64,000 nucleotides of DNA, from assembly GCA_023473665.1 (NCBI GenBank), contig JAMCYM010000001.1, forward strand, positions 52,923-116,922, read 5' to 3'. Below, one piece after another: positions 9,859-64,000 of the stretch (the stretch's first letter is position 1; the number at the start of each line of letters is the position of its first letter). A program made the translations under genes and the position numbers. The DNA is from Candidatus Marsarchaeota archaeon (GTDB taxonomy: Archaea > Micrarchaeota > Micrarchaeia > Micrarchaeales > Micrarchaeaceae). Under the pieces are notes generated by a model. It was not told the DNA's origin and did no database searches. It saw only the letters and a program-made list of their open reading frames with translations.

Positions 9859-9965
9859 GCAGGGGTGGCGGAGTCTGGTTTGGCTCTTACTAGCCACGGA
9901 AAAACGCGCAGGACTTAAGATCCTGTGGCCTAGCGCCTTCGAGAGTTCGAATCTCTCCCCCTGCA
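9859..9965 (+). tRNA. tRNA-Leu(TAA) with a roughly 21-nt non-canonical intron in the D-loop
   Basis: Acceptor GCAGGGG/CCCCTGC; anticodon arm CAGGA-CTTAAGA-TCCTG; long variable arm; T arm GAGAG-TTCGAAT-CTCTC. The 107-nt length is explained by an extra hairpin, TGGCT-CTTACT-AGCCA, inside the D-loop. Confidence 0.8.
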
Positions 9966-20583: not shown

Positions 20584-20904
20584 ATGGCAGACTTGGCAAG
20601 CGACATACGGCTCGCAGTCGACAGCGGAGTCACAGCCATGGGCGTCAACAAGGTCATAGACTCGATAAAGGACAATAGCGCCAAGCTCATAGTCCTGGCA
20701 GAGAAGAACAAGCCCCAGACAGCAAACGACATATCGCACCTGGCCAAAGTGGCAGGCATAAGCGTGATTGTATTTCCGGGCAACTCAATGGAACTCGGGG
20801 CGGTGTGCGGCAAACCCTACAGCGTCTCCGTGCTGTCCATATCAGAGCAGGGCAACTCGAAGATACTCGAGGAAAATTACGTTCAACATACAGCAAAGCA
20901 ATGA
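20584..20904 (+). CDS. rpl30e: Ribosomal protein L30e
   Basis: 106 aa; L30e/L7Ae fold with a typical KLIVLAEKN ... GNSMELGAVCGKPY pattern; heads the S12-S7-EF2 cluster. Confidence 0.85.
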   Translation: MADLASDIRLAVDSGVTAMGVNKVIDSIKDNSAKLIVLAEKNKPQTANDISHLAKVAGISVIVFPGNSMELGAVCGKPYSVSVLSISEQGNSKILEENYVQHTAKQ

Positions 20905-22092: not shown

Positions 22093-24285
22093 ATGGTAAG
22101 AAAGGAATACGTTGTAGAGGAAATCGCTAAGATAATGCACGCCATAGAGCGTATAAGGAACGTTGCGATAATAGCCCATGTCCACCACGGCAAGACCACC
22201 CTTACCGATTCATTGTTGGCGCGCGCGGGTCTCATATCCAAGACGGTTGCAGGAGAGGCCCTGTACACAAACTACGAGGCCATAGAGAAGGACAGGCGCA
22301 TGACCATCAAGTCCGCCAACATATCCCTCGGCTTTGACTACAAGGGCATGGACTACATAATCAACCTGATAGACACGCCAGGCCACGTCGACTTCGGTGG
22401 TCACGTCACCAGATCCATGCGCGCTGTTGACGGCGTAGTGCTTGTCGTCGATCCTGTCGAGGGTGTGATGCCCCAGACCGAGACGGTGCTGAGGCAGGCC
22501 CTCAAGGAGAAGGCGAAGCCCGTGCTGTTCATAAACAAGGTCGACAGGCTGCTCAACGAGCTCAGGCTCACGCAGGAGCAGACATTCGAGCGCCTGCTGA
22601 AGCTCATAGACGACATAAACAAAATGATAGACCGTTACGCCCCGGAGGAGTTCGTGAAGGACTGGAAGGTCAGCGTTGAGAACGGTAGCGTAGCGATGGG
22701 CTCGGCGTACAAGAAATGGGCCATATCAAAGCCGATAATGGACAAGTACAAGACCACGTTCAAGGACATATTTGCGCTCACTGCCGCGCAGGACGAGAAG
22801 AAGCTGCAGGAAGTCGCCCCGATAGACGAGGCTGTGCTCACAATGATAATAGACCACCTGCCAAGCCCGCAGGTGGCGCAGAAGTATCGCATACCCCAGA
22901 TATGGCATGGCGATCTCAACAGCCCTGACGGCCAGGCGATGCTCAACACCGATGCATCTGCCGGAACAAACGTCGTTGTGTTCAACATAGTTTATGATCC
23001 ACACAGCGGCGACGTGCCGGTAGGACGCATATTCTCAGGCGTGGCAAAGAAGGGCATAGAGCTGCACGTGTCAGGCAACCCTGGGACGCAAAGGCTCCAG
23101 CAGGTCGGCATATACATGGCGGCGGAGCGCGTTCCGGTGGAGCAGATACCCGCTGGCAACATAGTAGCGCTCATAGGCCTCAAGGACGTCAACATAGGCG
23201 ACACGATAAGCACCAACATCATAGAGCCGTTCGAGCAGATAACGCACTACTCTAAGCCCGTTGTGACGAAGGCGGTGGAAGCCAAAGACACGCGCGACAC
23301 CACGAAGCTCATAGAGGCGCTGCGCGAGCTCTCCAAGGAAGACCCAACGATAGTGACCGAGATAAATCAGGAAACCGGAGAGCATCTGGTCAGCGGCATG
23401 GGAGAGCTGCACCTCGAGATAATAGAGACGAAGCTCAGGGACGATTTCAAGATTCCGGTCATAACGAGCCCGCCGATCGTGATATACAGGGAAACGATAA
23501 ACTCCAAAGCAGGCCCGATAGAGGGCAAGACCCCGAACAGGCACTCCAGGTTCTATGTTACTGTCGAGCCGCTGTCAGAAGGCGTACAGAAGGCGATAGA
23601 CGAGGGCTCCATACGCGAGGGCAAGCCCAAAGGCCAAAACGCCATAGAGGCGATGGTCACAGCAGGGCTGGACAGGCAGATAGCCAAGAACGTTGAGGAG
23701 ATATCCAACAAGTGCATGCTCGCAGACACGACGCACGGCGTCCAGTATATGAACGAGGTCATGGAGCTCTTGATAGACGGCTTCGACGAGGCCGTCAAGG
23801 ACGGCCCGTTGGCAAGGGAGAAATGCTCAGGCGTGCTGGTCAGCGTGGTAGACGCAACCATACACGAGGATCCCGTGCACAGGGGGCCTGCGCAGATAAT
23901 ACCTGCTATAAGGAACGCGATATATGCAGGCATGCTCACGGCCGGCGTGACCCTCCTGGAGCCCAAACAGGACTTCACGATAAACATACCACAGGAGTAC
24001 ATTTCCAATGTTATAACGTTCATCCAGAGCAAGCGCGGCCAGGTTGCAAGCATAACGCAGGACCGCGAGCAGGTCTCGATAACTGCGAAGATGCCTGTTG
24101 CAGAGACGCTGAAGGGTTTCTCGAACGACCTCCGCGGCCTGACGCAAGGCAGGGCCATATGGTACACGGCATTCGCTGGCTACGAACGCCTGCCCACGGA
24201 CCTGCAGAACAAGATAGTCCGCGAGATACGCGAACGCAAGGGGCAGAGCCCTGAGCCGCCAACGCCAGCGCAGTTCATGGACTAA
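22093..24285 (+). CDS. fusA: Translation elongation factor aEF-2
   Basis: 730 aa; G1 AHVHHGKTT, DTPGHVDF and NKVD motifs; the diphthamide-loop His region is present. Confidence 0.95.
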   Translation: MVRKEYVVEEIAKIMHAIERIRNVAIIAHVHHGKTTLTDSLLARAGLISKTVAGEALYTNYEAIEKDRRMTIKSANISLGFDYKGMDYIINLIDTPGHVDFGGHVTRSMRAVDGVVLVVDPVEGVMPQTETVLRQALKEKAKPVLFINKVDRLLNELRLTQEQTFERLLKLIDDINKMIDRYAPEEFVKDWKVSVENGSVAMGSAYKKWAISKPIMDKYKTTFKDIFALTAAQDEKKLQEVAPIDEAVLTMIIDHLPSPQVAQKYRIPQIWHGDLNSPDGQAMLNTDASAGTNVVVFNIVYDPHSGDVPVGRIFSGVAKKGIELHVSGNPGTQRLQQVGIYMAAERVPVEQIPAGNIVALIGLKDVNIGDTISTNIIEPFEQITHYSKPVVTKAVEAKDTRDTTKLIEALRELSKEDPTIVTEINQETGEHLVSGMGELHLEIIETKLRDDFKIPVITSPPIVIYRETINSKAGPIEGKTPNRHSRFYVTVEPLSEGVQKAIDEGSIREGKPKGQNAIEAMVTAGLDRQIAKNVEEISNKCMLADTTHGVQYMNEVMELLIDGFDEAVKDGPLAREKCSGVLVSVVDATIHEDPVHRGPAQIIPAIRNAIYAGMLTAGVTLLEPKQDFTINIPQEYISNVITFIQSKRGQVASITQDREQVSITAKMPVAETLKGFSNDLRGLTQGRAIWYTAFAGYERLPTDLQNKIVREIRERKGQSPEPPTPAQFMD

Positions 24286-24450: not shown

Positions 24451-24975
24451 ATGGCAAAATCCTACGTGAAATTCGAAGTATCTAAAGAAGTCGCAGACAA
24501 GACGTACGAGGCCCTCCAGCTAGCCAAGCAAGGCGGCAAGATAAGGAAGGGTGTGAATGAAGCCACGAAGAGCGTGGAGCGCGGGCTCGCCAGCTTCGTT
24601 GTGCTGGCCGAGGACGTGGAGCCCGAGGAGGTAATAATGCACCTGCCTATGCTCTGCGAGCAGAAGAAGATACCCTTCTCGTACGTTCCAAGCAAGCTCG
24701 AGCTCGGCAAGGCGATAGGCCTGGGCGTGCAGTGCGCGGCAGTTGCCATAGAGAGCCAGGGTGGAGGCGCGTCCGCCATAAAGGACGTCATAGCGAGAGT
24801 CACAGGCACCTCGCAGAAGGCGCAATCTCAGGCGCCTCAGACGCCGGCAGCGCAGCCGAAGCCAAAGGAGGCCAAGCCCCATGCAAAGAAGCAGGAGCAG
24901 AAACCCGGTGAGCGTGCCGAGGCGCAGCAGCCTGCGCCAGCGCAGGCTGAGCCGTCGCAGCAGGCCAAGCAATAA
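24451..24975 (+). CDS. rpl7ae: Ribosomal protein L7Ae with a roughly 55-aa low-complexity C-terminal extension
   Basis: Conserved KIRKGVNEATKSVERG ... VLAEDVEPEEV ... IPFSYVPSK core; Q/A/P/K-rich tail. The ORF track also allows GTG at 24442. Confidence 0.9.
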   Translation: MAKSYVKFEVSKEVADKTYEALQLAKQGGKIRKGVNEATKSVERGLASFVVLAEDVEPEEVIMHLPMLCEQKKIPFSYVPSKLELGKAIGLGVQCAAVAIESQGGGASAIKDVIARVTGTSQKAQSQAPQTPAAQPKPKEAKPHAKKQEQKPGERAEAQQPAPAQAEPSQQAKQ

Positions 24976-36221: not shown

Positions 36222-36415
36222 CTTTCACGCCCTAAATATTGCTGGTGTCGGTATGGCAGCCTGAGCACTCAGTGGCTCCTGTATTTGAAAGCTAGTTTTG
36301 CTTGCTTTGTGAAGATACACCTGCTATCTAGAGCGCTCTATCTGTGCTGCTGTGCTATTGCACTTGTGTGATCGTGCGTTTGCGCGATTGAATCGAGGAG
36401 AAGAGAAGCTTGCAA

Positions 36416-39250
36416 AATTTTTAAGCCACCTAGAGGATGGCTTGGCTATAGCAGCGATGAAGGCCGTGGCAAGCTGCGATAAGCCCGGGGTAGCCGCAAG
36501 TCAGGCTTTGAACCCGGGATTGCCGAATTGCGCACAGCGATGTGCGAGCACACGCGGGGAACTGAAATATCTTAGTACCCGCAGGAAAAGAAAGCGAAAG
36601 CGATGCGGTAAGTAATGCGAATGAAAGCCGCACAGGGCGAACTGAATCCCGCTTTGCAAAAGGCGCGGAGATGTGGGGCAGCGCCGATCCAGGACATGAG
36701 CCGAGCGCGCTGGAAAGCGCGGCCATAGAGAGTGACAGCCTCGTAGGCTAAGTGCGATGGACCTGCTGCCGGAGAGTAATTCCGCTCGAGTATGCGGAGT
36801 GAAGACGGGGGCATTAAACCCCAACCCTAAATATTGGCTATAGACCGATAGCGAACAAGTAGCGTGAGCGAAAGCTGAAAAGAACCCACACGCGTGGGAG
36901 TGAAAAGATCTGAAACTAGGTGGTGACACGAAGGTATGGCGAGGAAGGAATGATGTGCGCCGAAGCGCGAGCTTGAGAAGGCTTAGCGAGGCGCAAGAAC
37001 CATTGTCATGCCATTCTTCTTGAAGCAAGAGCCAGGGAGTGTATGGATGTGGCGAGCCGTAAGGCGTAGCGAAAGCGAGAGCGCGCAGCATGCGAGGCGC
37101 GAGGTATGAAAATGCCCAAGTCACACTCATACGACCCGAAGCCACTGCGAACTACGCGCGCCCAAGGCGAAGCTAGGCTAACGCCTGGTGGAGGCCTGCA
37201 ACCTGTCATGGCATGCCCTGTTGGGTGAGGCGCGGGTAGCGGCGATATACCACTCGAGCGTGGCAATAGCGGGTCCCCTCTGAAGTATCTTTAGGATAGC
37301 TCCGGGCGAGCTTGCGCACGCGGTAGAGCGACCGATTGATGGGTATGGGTCCGGAAGGACTCGCCTGTCCGTCAAACTCCGAATGCATGCGCTGCGTAGA
37401 CCCCGGGAGTCGGCGGTGTTGGGTAAGCTAGCACCGCGAGACTGCAAAGATAGTGACCAAGGTTAAGGTCCCCAAATCCTAGTTAAGTGCAAAGAAAGCG
37501 AGAAGCGCCACAGACAGCTGGGAGGTAGGCTCAGAAGCAGCCATCCTTCAAAAAACGCGTAATAGCGTACCAGTTGAGGCGTTCCTTTCTGAAAATATAC
37601 GGGGCTAAACTAGGTACCGAGACCCTGGAGTGCGAAAGCACTGGTAAGAGGGCGTACGGCGCGGCTGGAAGCATGCGCGAGAGCACATGTGGACCGCGCC
37701 GCAGTGAACATCCTGGTGTTAGTAATAGCATATATGGGTGAGAATCCCATACACCGTAAGCACACGGGTTTCTTCGCAACGCTTGTCAGCGGAGAGTTAG
37801 GCGATCCTAAGCGGCGGGCCAATCACCTCGCCGCAAAAGGGAAGCTGGTTAATATTCCAGCCCCTAACGTGTAGGTGTGGCAACACAAGGCAGATTTCTG
37901 ACGCCTGGGGATAGGTCCGCAAGAAAGTGCAAAGGGCTGTGGAGTCTCGTTATGAGGAGAAGCAGCTAAATGAACTGTTGGACTGATTTCTTGGGCCCGT
38001 GAAAAGGGAATCTGCAACGATCACGTTAGTCCGTACCTAGAACCAGTACAGGTGCTGCTGGCTTAAAAGGCCAAGGTGTGTCGGAATAACCATGGTTAGG
38101 GAATTCGGCAAAATAGTGGCGTAAGTTTTCGACAAGCCATGTCTGCGCCTAGTAAGCGCAGATGTCACTGACAAGGGAACAACGACTGTTTATCAAAAAC
38201 ACAACTCACCGCAAAGCCGAAAGGCTAAGTACAGTGGGTGACGCCTGCTCACCGCCAGTACGTGAACACCCTTTTCAAGGGGGATAAGCGCTGGCAAAGA
38301 GCGGGAGTAACTCTGACTCTCTTGAGGTAGCGTAATACCTCGTCACTTAATAGGTGACTTGCATGAAGGGCGTAACGATTGTTCCACTGTCCCAACCATG
38401 GATCCGGTGAACTCACTTCGTGGTGAATATGCCACGATCCTCCAGTGGGAAATGAAGACTCTATGAAGCTTGACTACAGCCTGCTGTTGTTGTCCGGTTT
38501 GCCATACATAGCGTAAGTGGGAGCGTCGATGCGCGCGCTGCGGCGCGCGCGGAGCGACAATGTAACACCACTTTTGGCTTTCCGTACAGCTTACCCGAGA
38601 GGGGACAGCTACAGGTGGGTAGTTAGACTGGACGGTTACTTTCGATAGGGAAACGAAAGCGACCAAAGCTCTGCTTAGGCGAGTTGGAAACTCGCCGCTA
38701 AGCAAAAAGGCAAATGCAGGGCTGACTGTGCACTGAAAAGCGTGGTGCGCAGACTGGAAACAGGGGCTTAACGAACGTTGGTAGCTCTTTTAATGGGGCT
38801 CCAAGCTGTCAGACAAGTTACTCTAGAGGTAACCGATTCGTCGCCGGCGAGAGTTCACATCGACCTGGCGCATTGATACATCGTTATGGGCTTGGGTTAT
38901 CCTGGTGGTGCACAAGCTGCCAAGGGTTGGGCTGTACGCCCATTAAAAACTCACATGAGCTGCGTTCAGTACGTCGCGAGACAGTACGGTAGTATCTACT
39001 GGAGGTGTAAGTGCCAGAGGATAAGACCCCCTTAATACGAGAGGAACGGGGGATCGGCGCCACTGGTGTACCTGTTGTGAATGCATTGCAGGGTAGCTAC
39101 GCGCCAAATGGATAAGTCCTGAAAGCATCTAAGGACGAAGCCAGACCCGAAACGAGGCACTAGGGCGGCCGCAATCGACGGCTTTGATAGGAGGGGTGCG
39201 CAAGCAGGGAGCTCACGCGACCTGCGAACATTCCCTTACTAACGCCTTAC
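36416..39250 (+). rRNA. 23S ribosomal RNA (unlinked from the 16S, strongly divergent)
   Basis: 5' domain GGGGAACTGAAATATCTTAGTACCCGCAGGAAAAGAAA, sarcin-ricin-like GTACGAGAGGAAC-type region, 3' GAAAGCATCTAAG. Flanked by complementary processing-stem arms at 36397-36415 and 39251-39268. Confidence 0.9.
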
Positions 39251-39270
39251 TTGCAAGCTCTCTTCTCCAA

Positions 39271-40814: not shown

Positions 40815-40822
40815 ATTTAAAT
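40815..40822 (+). promoter_or_regulatory. TATA box driving the C/D sRNA and the histone-fold operon
   Basis: ATTTAAAT 24 nt upstream of the C box at 40846. Confidence 0.5.
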
Positions 40823-40842
40823 GCGTTTAACCACACAATAAG

Positions 40843-40905
40843 CCAGTGATGAAAAGAGAGTCAGCTGAGCTAAGGCTGTGATGTGGATCTTGAGTGCTGA
40901 AATGG
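40843..40905 (+). ncRNA. Box C/D sRNA (dual guide)
   Basis: C GTGATGA 40846-52; 12-nt guide; D' CTGA 40865-68; 9-nt spacer; C' GTGATGT 40878-84; 12-nt guide; D CTGA 40897-900. The D' guide has 11 contiguous Watson-Crick pairs with the in-window 23S (38313-38323). Confidence 0.75.
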
Positions 40906-40914
40906 AGTGAGCGC

Positions 40915-41121
40915 ATGGCGATATCGAAGGGCGACGTCAAGAAATTCGTGAAGGAGCGCTTCAACGTCATGATGGAGGATGCTGCAGCGGAGAAGATGGC
41001 AGAGATGCTAGAGAGCAAGGCCGCAGAGATAGCCAAGTATGCCGTTGAACATGCTAAGAAAGGCAGCAAGGCCGTCTGCGCAGAGGATATAGACGCCTAC
41101 AAGCTTGAGCACGGGAATTGA
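40915..41121 (+). CDS. Histone-fold protein (divergent archaeal histone-like)
   Basis: 68 aa from the ATG; aligns by eye helix-for-helix with HMfB (NVMMEDAAAEKMAEMLESKAAEIAKYAVEHAKKGSKAVCAEDIDAY vs AERVSDDARITLAKILEEMGRDIASEAIKLARHAGRKTIKAEDIELAV). The RKT DNA-contact motif is replaced by SKA. Confidence 0.55.
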   Translation: MAISKGDVKKFVKERFNVMMEDAAAEKMAEMLESKAAEIAKYAVEHAKKGSKAVCAEDIDAYKLEHGN

Positions 41122-55969: not shown

Positions 55970-56070
55970 CCCGTTGTAGCTCAATGGCAGAGCGACCGGC
56001 TGTAGTTTGTTAGCTTCTTGCAAAACAAGAAGATACCGGTAGGTTGGGCGTTCAACTCGCCCCAACGGGA
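55970..56070 (+). tRNA. tRNA-Tyr(GTA) with a 29-nt canonical (37/38) intron
   Basis: Acceptor CCCGTTG/CAACGGG (archaeal C1-G72), D arm GCTC/GAGC, anticodon stem ACCGG/CCGGT, anticodon GTA at 56002-56004, intron 56006-56034 with a CTTCTTG/CAAGAAG hairpin, T arm GGGCG/CGCCC. Confidence 0.85.
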
Positions 56071-63624: not shown

Positions 63625-64000
63625 ACTCCAGTCGATGCTGCTGGAGGACACTGCTATCAGATTTCGACAGCCATGCAAGTCTGCTCTATGGCTTCATAGG
63701 GCGGCGTACGGCTCAGTAACGCGTAGTCAATCTAACGCACGGAGGAGCACACCCCCGGGAAACTGGGGTTAATTCTCCATAAGCAAGGGCATCTGGAAGG
63801 AGCCCTTGCCAAAAGGGGCGCAAAATGCAGCGCTTCCGCCATGCGATGAGACTGCGTCGGATCAGGCAGATGGCGGGGTAACGGCCCACCATACCGATAA
63901 CCCGTAGGGGATATGGGAGTATGAGCCCCGAGAAGGGCACTGAGACAAGGGCCCTAGCGCTACGGCGTGCAGCAGGCGCGCAAACTCCACAATGCGCGTA
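63625..64000 (+). rRNA. 16S ribosomal RNA, 5' part (runs off the window)
   Basis: ACTCCAGTCGATGCTGCTGGAGG...GCCATGCAAGTC...GGCTCAGTAACGCGT...CTACGGCGTGCAGCAGGCGCG align by eye with the archaeal 16S 5' domain. Confidence 0.88.

Follow-up and report, generated by a model that had tools for sequence, protein, structure and literature searches.

A probable two-target box C/D guide RNA in the leader of a Micrarchaeota histone-fold gene

We analysed a 64,000-nt stretch of an archaeal genome (hereafter the window; assembly GCA_023473665.1, contig JAMCYM010000001.1, positions 52,923 to 116,922, forward strand). The 60 bases that precede a histone-fold gene in this window very probably encode a small methylation guide RNA with two targets, as judged from the sequence. 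The element has the layout of a box C/D small RNA (sRNA). One guide is complementary to a leucine transfer RNA, tRNA-Leu(CAA), and the other to helix 69 of 23S ribosomal RNA (rRNA). We hold with high confidence the explanation as a whole, namely a Micrarchaeota box C/D guide RNA in a histone leader that would direct 2'-O-methylation of wobble C34 of tRNA-Leu(CAA) (Cm34) and of 23S C1920. The source genome (G000) belongs to the Micrarchaeota, a DPANN lineage. Its assembly consists of 3 contigs totalling 779 kb, with 53% G+C and 96% estimated completeness.

Architecture of the element

The initial annotation had described a canonical box C/D sRNA at this locus. On re-reading, all four boxes, both 12-nt guides, the TATA box and the ATG of the histone-fold gene lay where it had placed them, exact to the base. 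A RUGAUGA box C near the 5' end and a CUGA box D near the 3' end enclose internal D' and C' boxes. Both guide spacers are exactly 12 nt, within the ~10-12 nt of the class, and the canonical architecture therefore stands. The features of the locus, in window coordinates, are as follows.

40815-40822, + strand: TATA box ATTTAAAT, at -31 to -24 counted from the first base of box C (read from sequence)
40842-40903, + strand: box C/D sRNA, ~55-62 nt, ends approximate (match of the sequence model R1, described below, 40844-40903; Rfam C/D families 40842-40902)
40846-40852, + strand: box C GTGATGA (TGATGA invariant in 73 aligned orthologues, which were retrieved with a search pattern lacking the C box)
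40853-40864, + strand: D' guide AAAGAGAGTCAG, 12 nt, N+5 nucleotide G40860
40865-40868, + strand: box D' CTGA (conservation at least 90% in orthologues)
40869-40877, + strand: D'-C' spacer GCTAAGGCT, 9 nt, with a GC...GC two-pair mini-stem
40878-40884, + strand: box C' GTGATGT (read from sequence)
40885-40896, + strand: D guide GGATCTTGAGTG, 12 nt, N+5 nucleotide G40892
40897-40900, + strand: box D CTGA (read from sequence)
40915-41121, + strand: open reading frame of a 68-amino-acid archaeal histone-fold gene, with a GGAG Shine-Dalgarno-like motif at 40904-40907

Many Micrarchaeota orthologues keep the GC-N4/5-GC spacer, and the longer Thermoplasmata spacers keep 3-bp stems. From this pattern we infer that the D'-C' mini-stem forms stem II of an internal kink-turn (k-turn). 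L7Ae would bind two k-turns, a terminal one of boxes C/D and an internal one of C'/D', after which Nop5 and fibrillarin would complete the ribonucleoprotein (RNP). Genes for all three proteins are present: fibrillarin (PF01269, 256.5 bits), Nop5 (PF01798, 151.8 bits) and two L7Ae-family genes (PF01248, 92.6 and 57.6 bits), both of which lie within the window. The finding means that symbiont genomes of ~0.8 Mb still retain the machinery for RNA-guided methylation.

24499-24762, + strand: PF01248 gene, candidate k-turn-binding core protein of the sRNP (92.6 bits; G000 C2:77421-77684)
20593-20868: second PF01248 match, candidate L7Ae (profile match)

The complete C/guide/D'/spacer/C'/guide/D layout was written as a strict regular expression and run on the genome, with 20 shuffled genomes as control. 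The window locus was the sole match in 779 kb, while the shuffled genomes averaged 0.05 matches. Half-units of the form RTGATGN-N9-13-CTGA, consisting of one box, a guide and CTGA, number 14 in the genome. Contiguous 11-nt Watson-Crick matches to rRNA or tRNA covering the N+5 position were found for just two of them, the guides of this element. The longest match among the remaining 12 half-units and all reversed-guide controls was 9. Random genomic 12-mers gave a run of at least 11 covering N+5 in ~0.6% of draws, a figure slightly inflated by the tRNA genes within the 12-mer pool; the analytic value was 0.4%. An 11-mer match to 23S had been called unlikely to arise by chance, and the empirical probability of ~0.004-0.006 per guide agrees. 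For both 11-nt matches together, the chance probability is ~1e-5. The targets compared were the rRNAs and tRNAs present in the 96%-complete assembly. A relaxed genome-wide guide census (degenerate boxes, 9-mers) returned 203 matches against 182 in the control and was uninformative.

The tRNA-Leu guide and its conservation

The target proposed in the initial annotation for the D guide, a tRNA-Leu(CAA) with C34 at N+5, was located elsewhere in the genome. A genome-wide search for sites complementary to the guide placed it at G000 C1:267269-267367 (- strand). The complementary site on contig C1 is GACTCAAGATCC, and the surrounding sequence is a class II tRNA-Leu(CAA). D guide positions 2-12, counted from box D, form 11 contiguous Watson-Crick pairs with tRNA nucleotides 31-41, and C34 stands opposite G40892 (guide position 5, N+5). 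The guide had been called a perfect complement, which would imply 12 pairs. This was one pair too many, for position 1 forms a G-G mismatch, as it does in Thermococcus. The T loop of the tRNA holds a ~13-nt insertion, presumably an intron, because of which ARAGORN misses the gene. With the insertion removed, the sequence folds with acceptor, anticodon (CUCAAGA loop) and T arms. Paired to nucleotides 31-41, the D guide would direct fibrillarin to 2'-O-methylate the wobble C34. In bacteria and eukaryotes, the wobble site of tRNA-Leu(CAA) is modified by protein enzymes (TrmL, Trm7).

The window itself holds a second leucine tRNA gene that may also be a target.

9859-9965, + strand: tRNA-Leu(UAA) gene, candidate secondary target, with U34 at 9916 and a D-loop insertion of ~21-23 nt, presumably an intron

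This gene matches the D guide as had been reported, with 10 Watson-Crick pairs plus one G:U, and the G:U pair falls on U34, the would-be methylation nucleotide. No separate guide specific for tRNA-Leu(UAA) was found in the genome. Owing to the D-loop insertion, ARAGORN miscalls the gene and Rfam misses it at the gathering threshold. The ARAGORN calls, as tRNA-His or as a 586-nt 'Leu(aag)', were replaced by manual definition and folding without insertions. Both tRNA-Leu genes were delimited manually, and their folding was checked after the insertions had been removed. The gene for tRNA-Leu(CAA), like that for tRNA-Leu(UAA), is missed by Rfam at the gathering threshold.

The D guide is the conserved part of the element. 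When the locus was compared by BLAST with 40 relatives, ~20 matched over the half from the D' box to the D box, at 78-96% identity. Each of these relatives had the full C/D architecture and an identical D guide core; the D' guide differed almost everywhere. The core, GATCTTGAGT, is conserved across archaeal phyla. A pattern limited to the C' box, D guide and D box was searched in ~186,000 species genomes and gave more than 116 loci, among them loci from Micrarchaeota, Thermoplasmata, Methanomassiliicoccales, DHVE2, Thermococcus, Bathyarchaeota, Hecatellales and Heimdallarchaeota. Two bacterial matches to the pattern were set aside as chance, as the other boxes were absent. A C box (RTGATGA) and a D' box (CTGA), neither of them part of the query, stood at the expected spacing in 112 distinct loci.

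A sequence model (R1) was built from 73 of the loci, with the source genome and its sister excluded. R1 matched the window at 40844-40903 with 44.7 bits (E=6e-13), its sole match in the window and in the genome. It also matched 144 of 150 sampled genomes of the order, some of which had supplied training sequences, and 80 of the 83 high-quality ones. The boxes and the D guide were thus found to be conserved in relatives, as expected of a genuine C/D sRNA; the D' guide was not, beyond the sister species. Our data suggest that the role of the D guide on tRNA-Leu(CAA) is the ancestral, pan-archaeal function of this sRNA family.

These results bear on the simplest alternative, that the box motifs and both complementarities arose by chance in an ordinary 5' untranslated region. 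CTGA and TGATGA are short and frequent, and the 14 half-units in this genome are in keeping with that view. It is contradicted by the full-architecture expectation of 0.05 per genome, by the joint probability of the two matches, and by the occurrence of the element throughout the order and across phyla. Conservation effectively refutes a chance origin, which we consider extremely improbable.

The same class of guide is known from other archaea. Pyrococcus C/D sRNAs are aimed at position 34 of tRNA-Leu(CAA), Leu(UAA), Met and Trp (PMC7994747; PMC7668247). The Pyrococcus/Thermococcus guide for C34 of tRNA-Leu(CAA) is attributed to Gaspin et al. 2000 and Omer et al. 2000, as cited within PMC7994747, and is listed for P. 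furiosus (PMC7668247). The window sRNA resembles this guide in class and in target nucleotide. It has the features that mark the Pyrococcus-type family: an antisense D guide, C34 at N+5 and the cognate tRNA in the genome. In sRNAs from Thermococcus metagenome-assembled genomes (MAGs; L028, L052, L058 and others), the D guide core GAUCUUGAGU and box D are identical to the window sRNA letter for letter. The D' guides differ, being CCUCGGCAGRG in Thermococcus and the helix 69 guide in the window. Two further differences from the Pyrococcus/Thermococcus system are that the window and Micrarchaeota sRNAs are fused to the 5' leader of a histone gene, and that the target tRNA of the window sRNA carries a T-loop intron. 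The window sRNA is, by its sequence, an orthologue of the Pyrococcus Leu(CAA) guide with the second guide re-targeted.

No family of Rfam 15 reaches its gathering score on the Thermococcus orthologue or on the window version, and we found no paper linking Micrarchaeota or DPANN with C/D sRNAs. The window sRNA is therefore an unannotated member of a long-known class. This member is ordinary, though well supported, and the understanding of how C/D sRNAs work is unchanged by it. The gain is one of annotation for Micrarchaeota genomes, to which an RNA gene and a tRNA-Leu(CAA), both overlooked so far, can be added.

Helix 69 and the labile D' slot

The D' guide pairs with the 23S rRNA encoded in the same window, an archaeal 23S at 36405-39261 (Rfam).

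38313-38323, + strand: 23S target of the D' guide, CTGACTCTCTT, with the predicted 2'-O-methyl on C38317

The sequence reported at this site was found there. D' guide positions 1-11 form 11 contiguous Watson-Crick pairs with it, and G40860 (position 5) stands opposite C38317. Alignment with E. coli rrlH in MAFFT, gap-free over 1903-1937, equates C38317 with E. coli C1920, in agreement with the earlier hand placement in helix 69. C1920 forms the G1910-C1920 pair of the helix 69 stem, on the 3' strand and adjoining the loop. In the proposed mechanism, the D' guide would pair with nucleotides 1916-1926 (E. coli numbering) of nascent 23S and C1920 would be methylated. The bacterial comparison made in the initial annotation is likewise supported, as TlyA is a protein-only 2'-O-methyltransferase that acts on 23S C1920 and 16S C1409 (PMC9168844). 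Nucleotide and chemical modification are the same as those predicted here. TlyA is a stand-alone enzyme that recognises the folded 50S and flips the base, whereas the window guide must pair with unfolded helix 69. The two are therefore convergent, not homologous.

Archaeal methylation hotspots include helices 68, 69 and 71 (Dennis et al. 2015, PMC4644070). Both guides of the window sRNA, with 11 pairs each, exceed the minimum of 9 contiguous Watson-Crick pairs covering guide position 5 used in that study to define guide pairing. Its Additional file 1 lists 23S C2186 as a predicted target of Methanococcus maripaludis sR104 and Sulfolobus acidocaldarius sR20. In the alignment of that paper A1912 is A2178, and C2186 lies 8 nt further on. 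We infer that C2186 is E. coli C1920, an equivalence not stated there for that site, and the two sRNAs would share their target nucleotide with the window D' guide. The sR104 guide, AAAGAGGGTTAT, precedes the first CTGA of its sRNA in a register equal to that of the window D' guide. In RNA letters, AAAGAGGGUUAU stands before the first CUGA, as in the window sRNA, with 9/12 identity to AAAGAGAGUCAG. sR104 and sR20 differ from the window sRNA in being separate sRNAs whose other guide is not on tRNA-Leu.

Helix 69 guides also occur in two other Micrarchaeota genomes, G042 and G063, where they serve as the D guides of different sRNAs.

G042 C21:~24000-24070, - strand: double-guide C/D sRNA (L146), D guide to helix 69 C1920
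G063 C38:~2200-2260, + strand: double-guide C/D sRNA (L143), D guide to helix 69 C1920

These genomes belong to the same order and carry the same helix 69 guide, AAGAGAGUCAG and AAGAGGGUUAG, adjoining CUGA. It occupies the D slot there and the D' slot of the tRNA-Leu sRNA in the window genome. The D' guides of the G042 and G063 sRNAs, GACAAGGTATTT and CACGAGGTATTT, pair ~20 nt downstream in 23S, and their D'-C' spacers are 2-3 nt. No separate helix 69/71 sRNA of this type was found in the source genome, and a comparison of the neighbourhoods of the two loci with the source genome revealed no conserved synteny.

Within the tRNA-Leu sRNA, the helix 69 guide is identical in the sister genome G002 and different in every other orthologue. 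The congeners G001 and G003 have the D' guide TTTTTGCGATC, and no helix 69 guide was found in their incomplete assemblies. When 18 D' guides from relatives were matched to the rRNA and tRNA of the source genome, runs did not exceed 9, the background level. On this evidence the D' slot is labile, and the helix 69 guide entered it recently, though the site at which it aims is one that archaea target repeatedly. The helix 69 function would thus have been gained within the genus, in analogy to TlyA, sR104 and sR20. The sRNA provides a clean example of guide turnover, in which one slot is frozen across phyla and the other was re-targeted within a genus to the helix 69 cytidine of TlyA.

Several observations weigh against a two-target guide RNA. 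The terminal stem is not clear beyond 3 pairs, either in the sequence or in the fold. No C/D family of Rfam reaches its gathering score at the window element, the best being sR3 (RF01133) with 23.7 bits against 41 and sR2 with 19.9 against 42. Model searches, named in the initial annotation as a check, thus succeed with R1 and fall below gathering with Rfam; the element is a member of the class yet lies outside every curated Rfam family. Helix 69 guides adjoining CTGA occur in 3 of 86 genomes of the order (at least 90% complete), about the level of the reversed-pattern control. The group as a whole therefore does not conserve C1920 methylation. Within the tRNA-Leu sRNA, the D' guide is confined to the source species and its sister. 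As these two genomes are 88% identical, identity over 12 nt is weak evidence of constraint.

In a narrower alternative, the sRNA is real and guides Cm34 of tRNA-Leu(CAA), while the complementarity to helix 69 is fortuitous or non-functional and the D' guide is an orphan. The D' guides of the family differ in nearly every lineage and mostly show background complementarity to the source rRNA and tRNA, and helix 69 guides are rare in the order. The family has ~100 different D' guides, among which ~0.4 11-mer matches should arise by chance. According to Lui et al., moreover, sRNAs that target tRNA usually have one target-less guide (PMC7994747; PMC6009581). Against an orphan guide stands the correct N+5 register on a site that is targeted independently, by prediction, in G042, G063, sR104 and sR20. 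This is far greater specificity than a random 11-mer in 8.7 kb would have, and the D' guide has the optimal length of 12 nt. On balance we give the orphan guide a low probability and retain helix 69 as the second target.

D' guides of other lineages offer further observations. In one Candidatus Micrarchaeia MAG (L096:1218-1292, - strand), the D' slot of the tRNA-Leu sRNA carries CCTCGAGGTATTG, which resembles the G042 and G063 D' guides aimed just downstream of helix 69. If so aimed, it would be a second case of a guide for 23S domain IV in the D' slot. Thermoplasmata loci (L024, L035, L043, L044, L049 and others) have a conserved D' guide, ACGAACCCTTT/G, and the Thermococcus loci (L028, L052, L058 and others) conserve CCTCGGCAGRG in their DNA. 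Such lineage-conserved D' guides suggest lineage-specific second targets in Thermoplasmata and Thermococcus.

The histone leader and other RNA genes

The gene downstream of the sRNA had been described as encoding a histone fold. The window protein itself stays below the Pfam cut-off (PF00808, 18.3 bits against 21.4). Its family assignment comes from homologues. A PF00808 match was obtained for 33 of 36 orthologues, the best at E=5e-11, and a profile of the family in turn matches the archaeal histones HMfA, HMfB and HPhA in the PDB with E about 1e-9. In at least 48 loci, a histone homologue starts 6-44 nt after box D, with protein identity down to about 30%. The orthologous arrangement of sRNA and histone gene is also present in the complete genome of 'Ca. 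Micrarchaeum sp. A_DKE' (L073), an archaeon cultivated in co-culture.

A promoter profile was compiled from 44 non-identical orthologous loci aligned on box C. The A/T fraction is 0.84-1.00 at -29 to -23 from box C, and a second A/T block lies at -11 to -8. This geometry fits a TATA box plus proximal element, with transcription starting at the 5' edge of the sRNA. We place the probable start ~0-3 nt before the C box. The window sequence from the sRNA to the ATG is free of A/T-rich stretches and T-runs, so the simplest reading is a histone operon transcript that has the sRNA as its leader. This geometry of the orthologous loci supports the earlier placement of the sRNA within the 5' leader of the histone-fold operon. 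The RNA had been expected to end about 10 nt before the ATG, and the gap between box D and the ATG is in fact 14 nt.

We propose that transcription would begin under control of the TATA box at 40815-40822, the sRNA forming the first ~60 nt of the histone-fold operon transcript. It would then be trimmed from the leader or be left as a protected fragment. sRNA genes that overlap messenger RNAs (mRNAs) or are co-transcribed with them are known from other archaea (PMC6009581).

The same arrangement could be read differently, with the element acting mainly in cis as a leader of the histone-fold mRNA. L7Ae or the RNP, bound to k-turns 3 nt upstream of the GGAG motif, would then control translation or stability. 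Such a role would make guiding secondary, and it partly overlaps with the explanation we favour. In favour of a cis-acting leader, the histone gene follows the sRNA at 6-44 nt in 48 loci, the pair being preceded by one conserved TATA box, and the interval up to the ATG has no place for a second promoter-like A/T block. A second conserved C/D sRNA of the same genome likewise ends 10 nt before an ATG. L7Ae on 5' untranslated k-turns has been proposed to regulate translation in Sulfolobus, a proposal to be found in PMC5539422. Yet the same sRNA occurs without a histone gene in Thermoplasmata, Thermococcus and Bathyarchaeota, and strict conservation falls on the tRNA-Leu guide rather than on the junction. 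Moreover, the sharing of promoters, or overlap, between sRNA genes and mRNAs is common in compact archaeal genomes (PMC6009581). A mainly cis-acting element is accordingly improbable in our estimation, and a guide RNA carried in the leader remains the preferred reading.

A more speculative extension joins the leader to the history of the D' slot, and we rate it as unlikely. In this joint scenario, the tRNA-Leu guide RNA of Micrarchaeota would be an obligatory 5' leader of the histone mRNA, and RNP assembly or excision beside the ribosome-binding site would gate histone synthesis. The D' slot would serve as a landing pad that captures guides of co-resident sRNAs. Two guides would have been captured in this way, the helix 69 guide of the window sRNA and a helix 71 guide of the L096 MAG, while the donor sRNA was lost from these streamlined genomes.

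The second sRNA lies outside the window, at G000 C3:6871-6925 (- strand; loci L150/L151), and is complete. A TATA box (tatttata, -29 to -22) is followed by GTGATGA, GTGAGGTAATCG, CTGA, GCTTTTAGC(T), ATGACGA, TAAGTAGGCGGG and CTGA, with the ATG 10 nt on. In 29 of 41 relatives, which span three families, both of its guides recur at 78-93% identity. Neither guide has a match of at least 9 nt to any rRNA or tRNA of the assembly, and none was found when G:U pairs were allowed. The D' guide resembles the complement of the 16S 3' end, with a mismatch at N+5.

The 16S rRNA gene leaves contig C2 at the end of the window (63625-64000, continuing to G000 C2:117384) and resumes at C3:4-1155. The part on C3 is 1152 nt long but covers 639 model positions; this length implies that the 3' half contains ~500 inserted nt, either an intron or an expansion. 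Finally, the intron-containing tRNA reported by Rfam at 55970-56070 of the window is tRNA-Tyr(GTA) with a 29-nt intron, as identified by ARAGORN with intron search.

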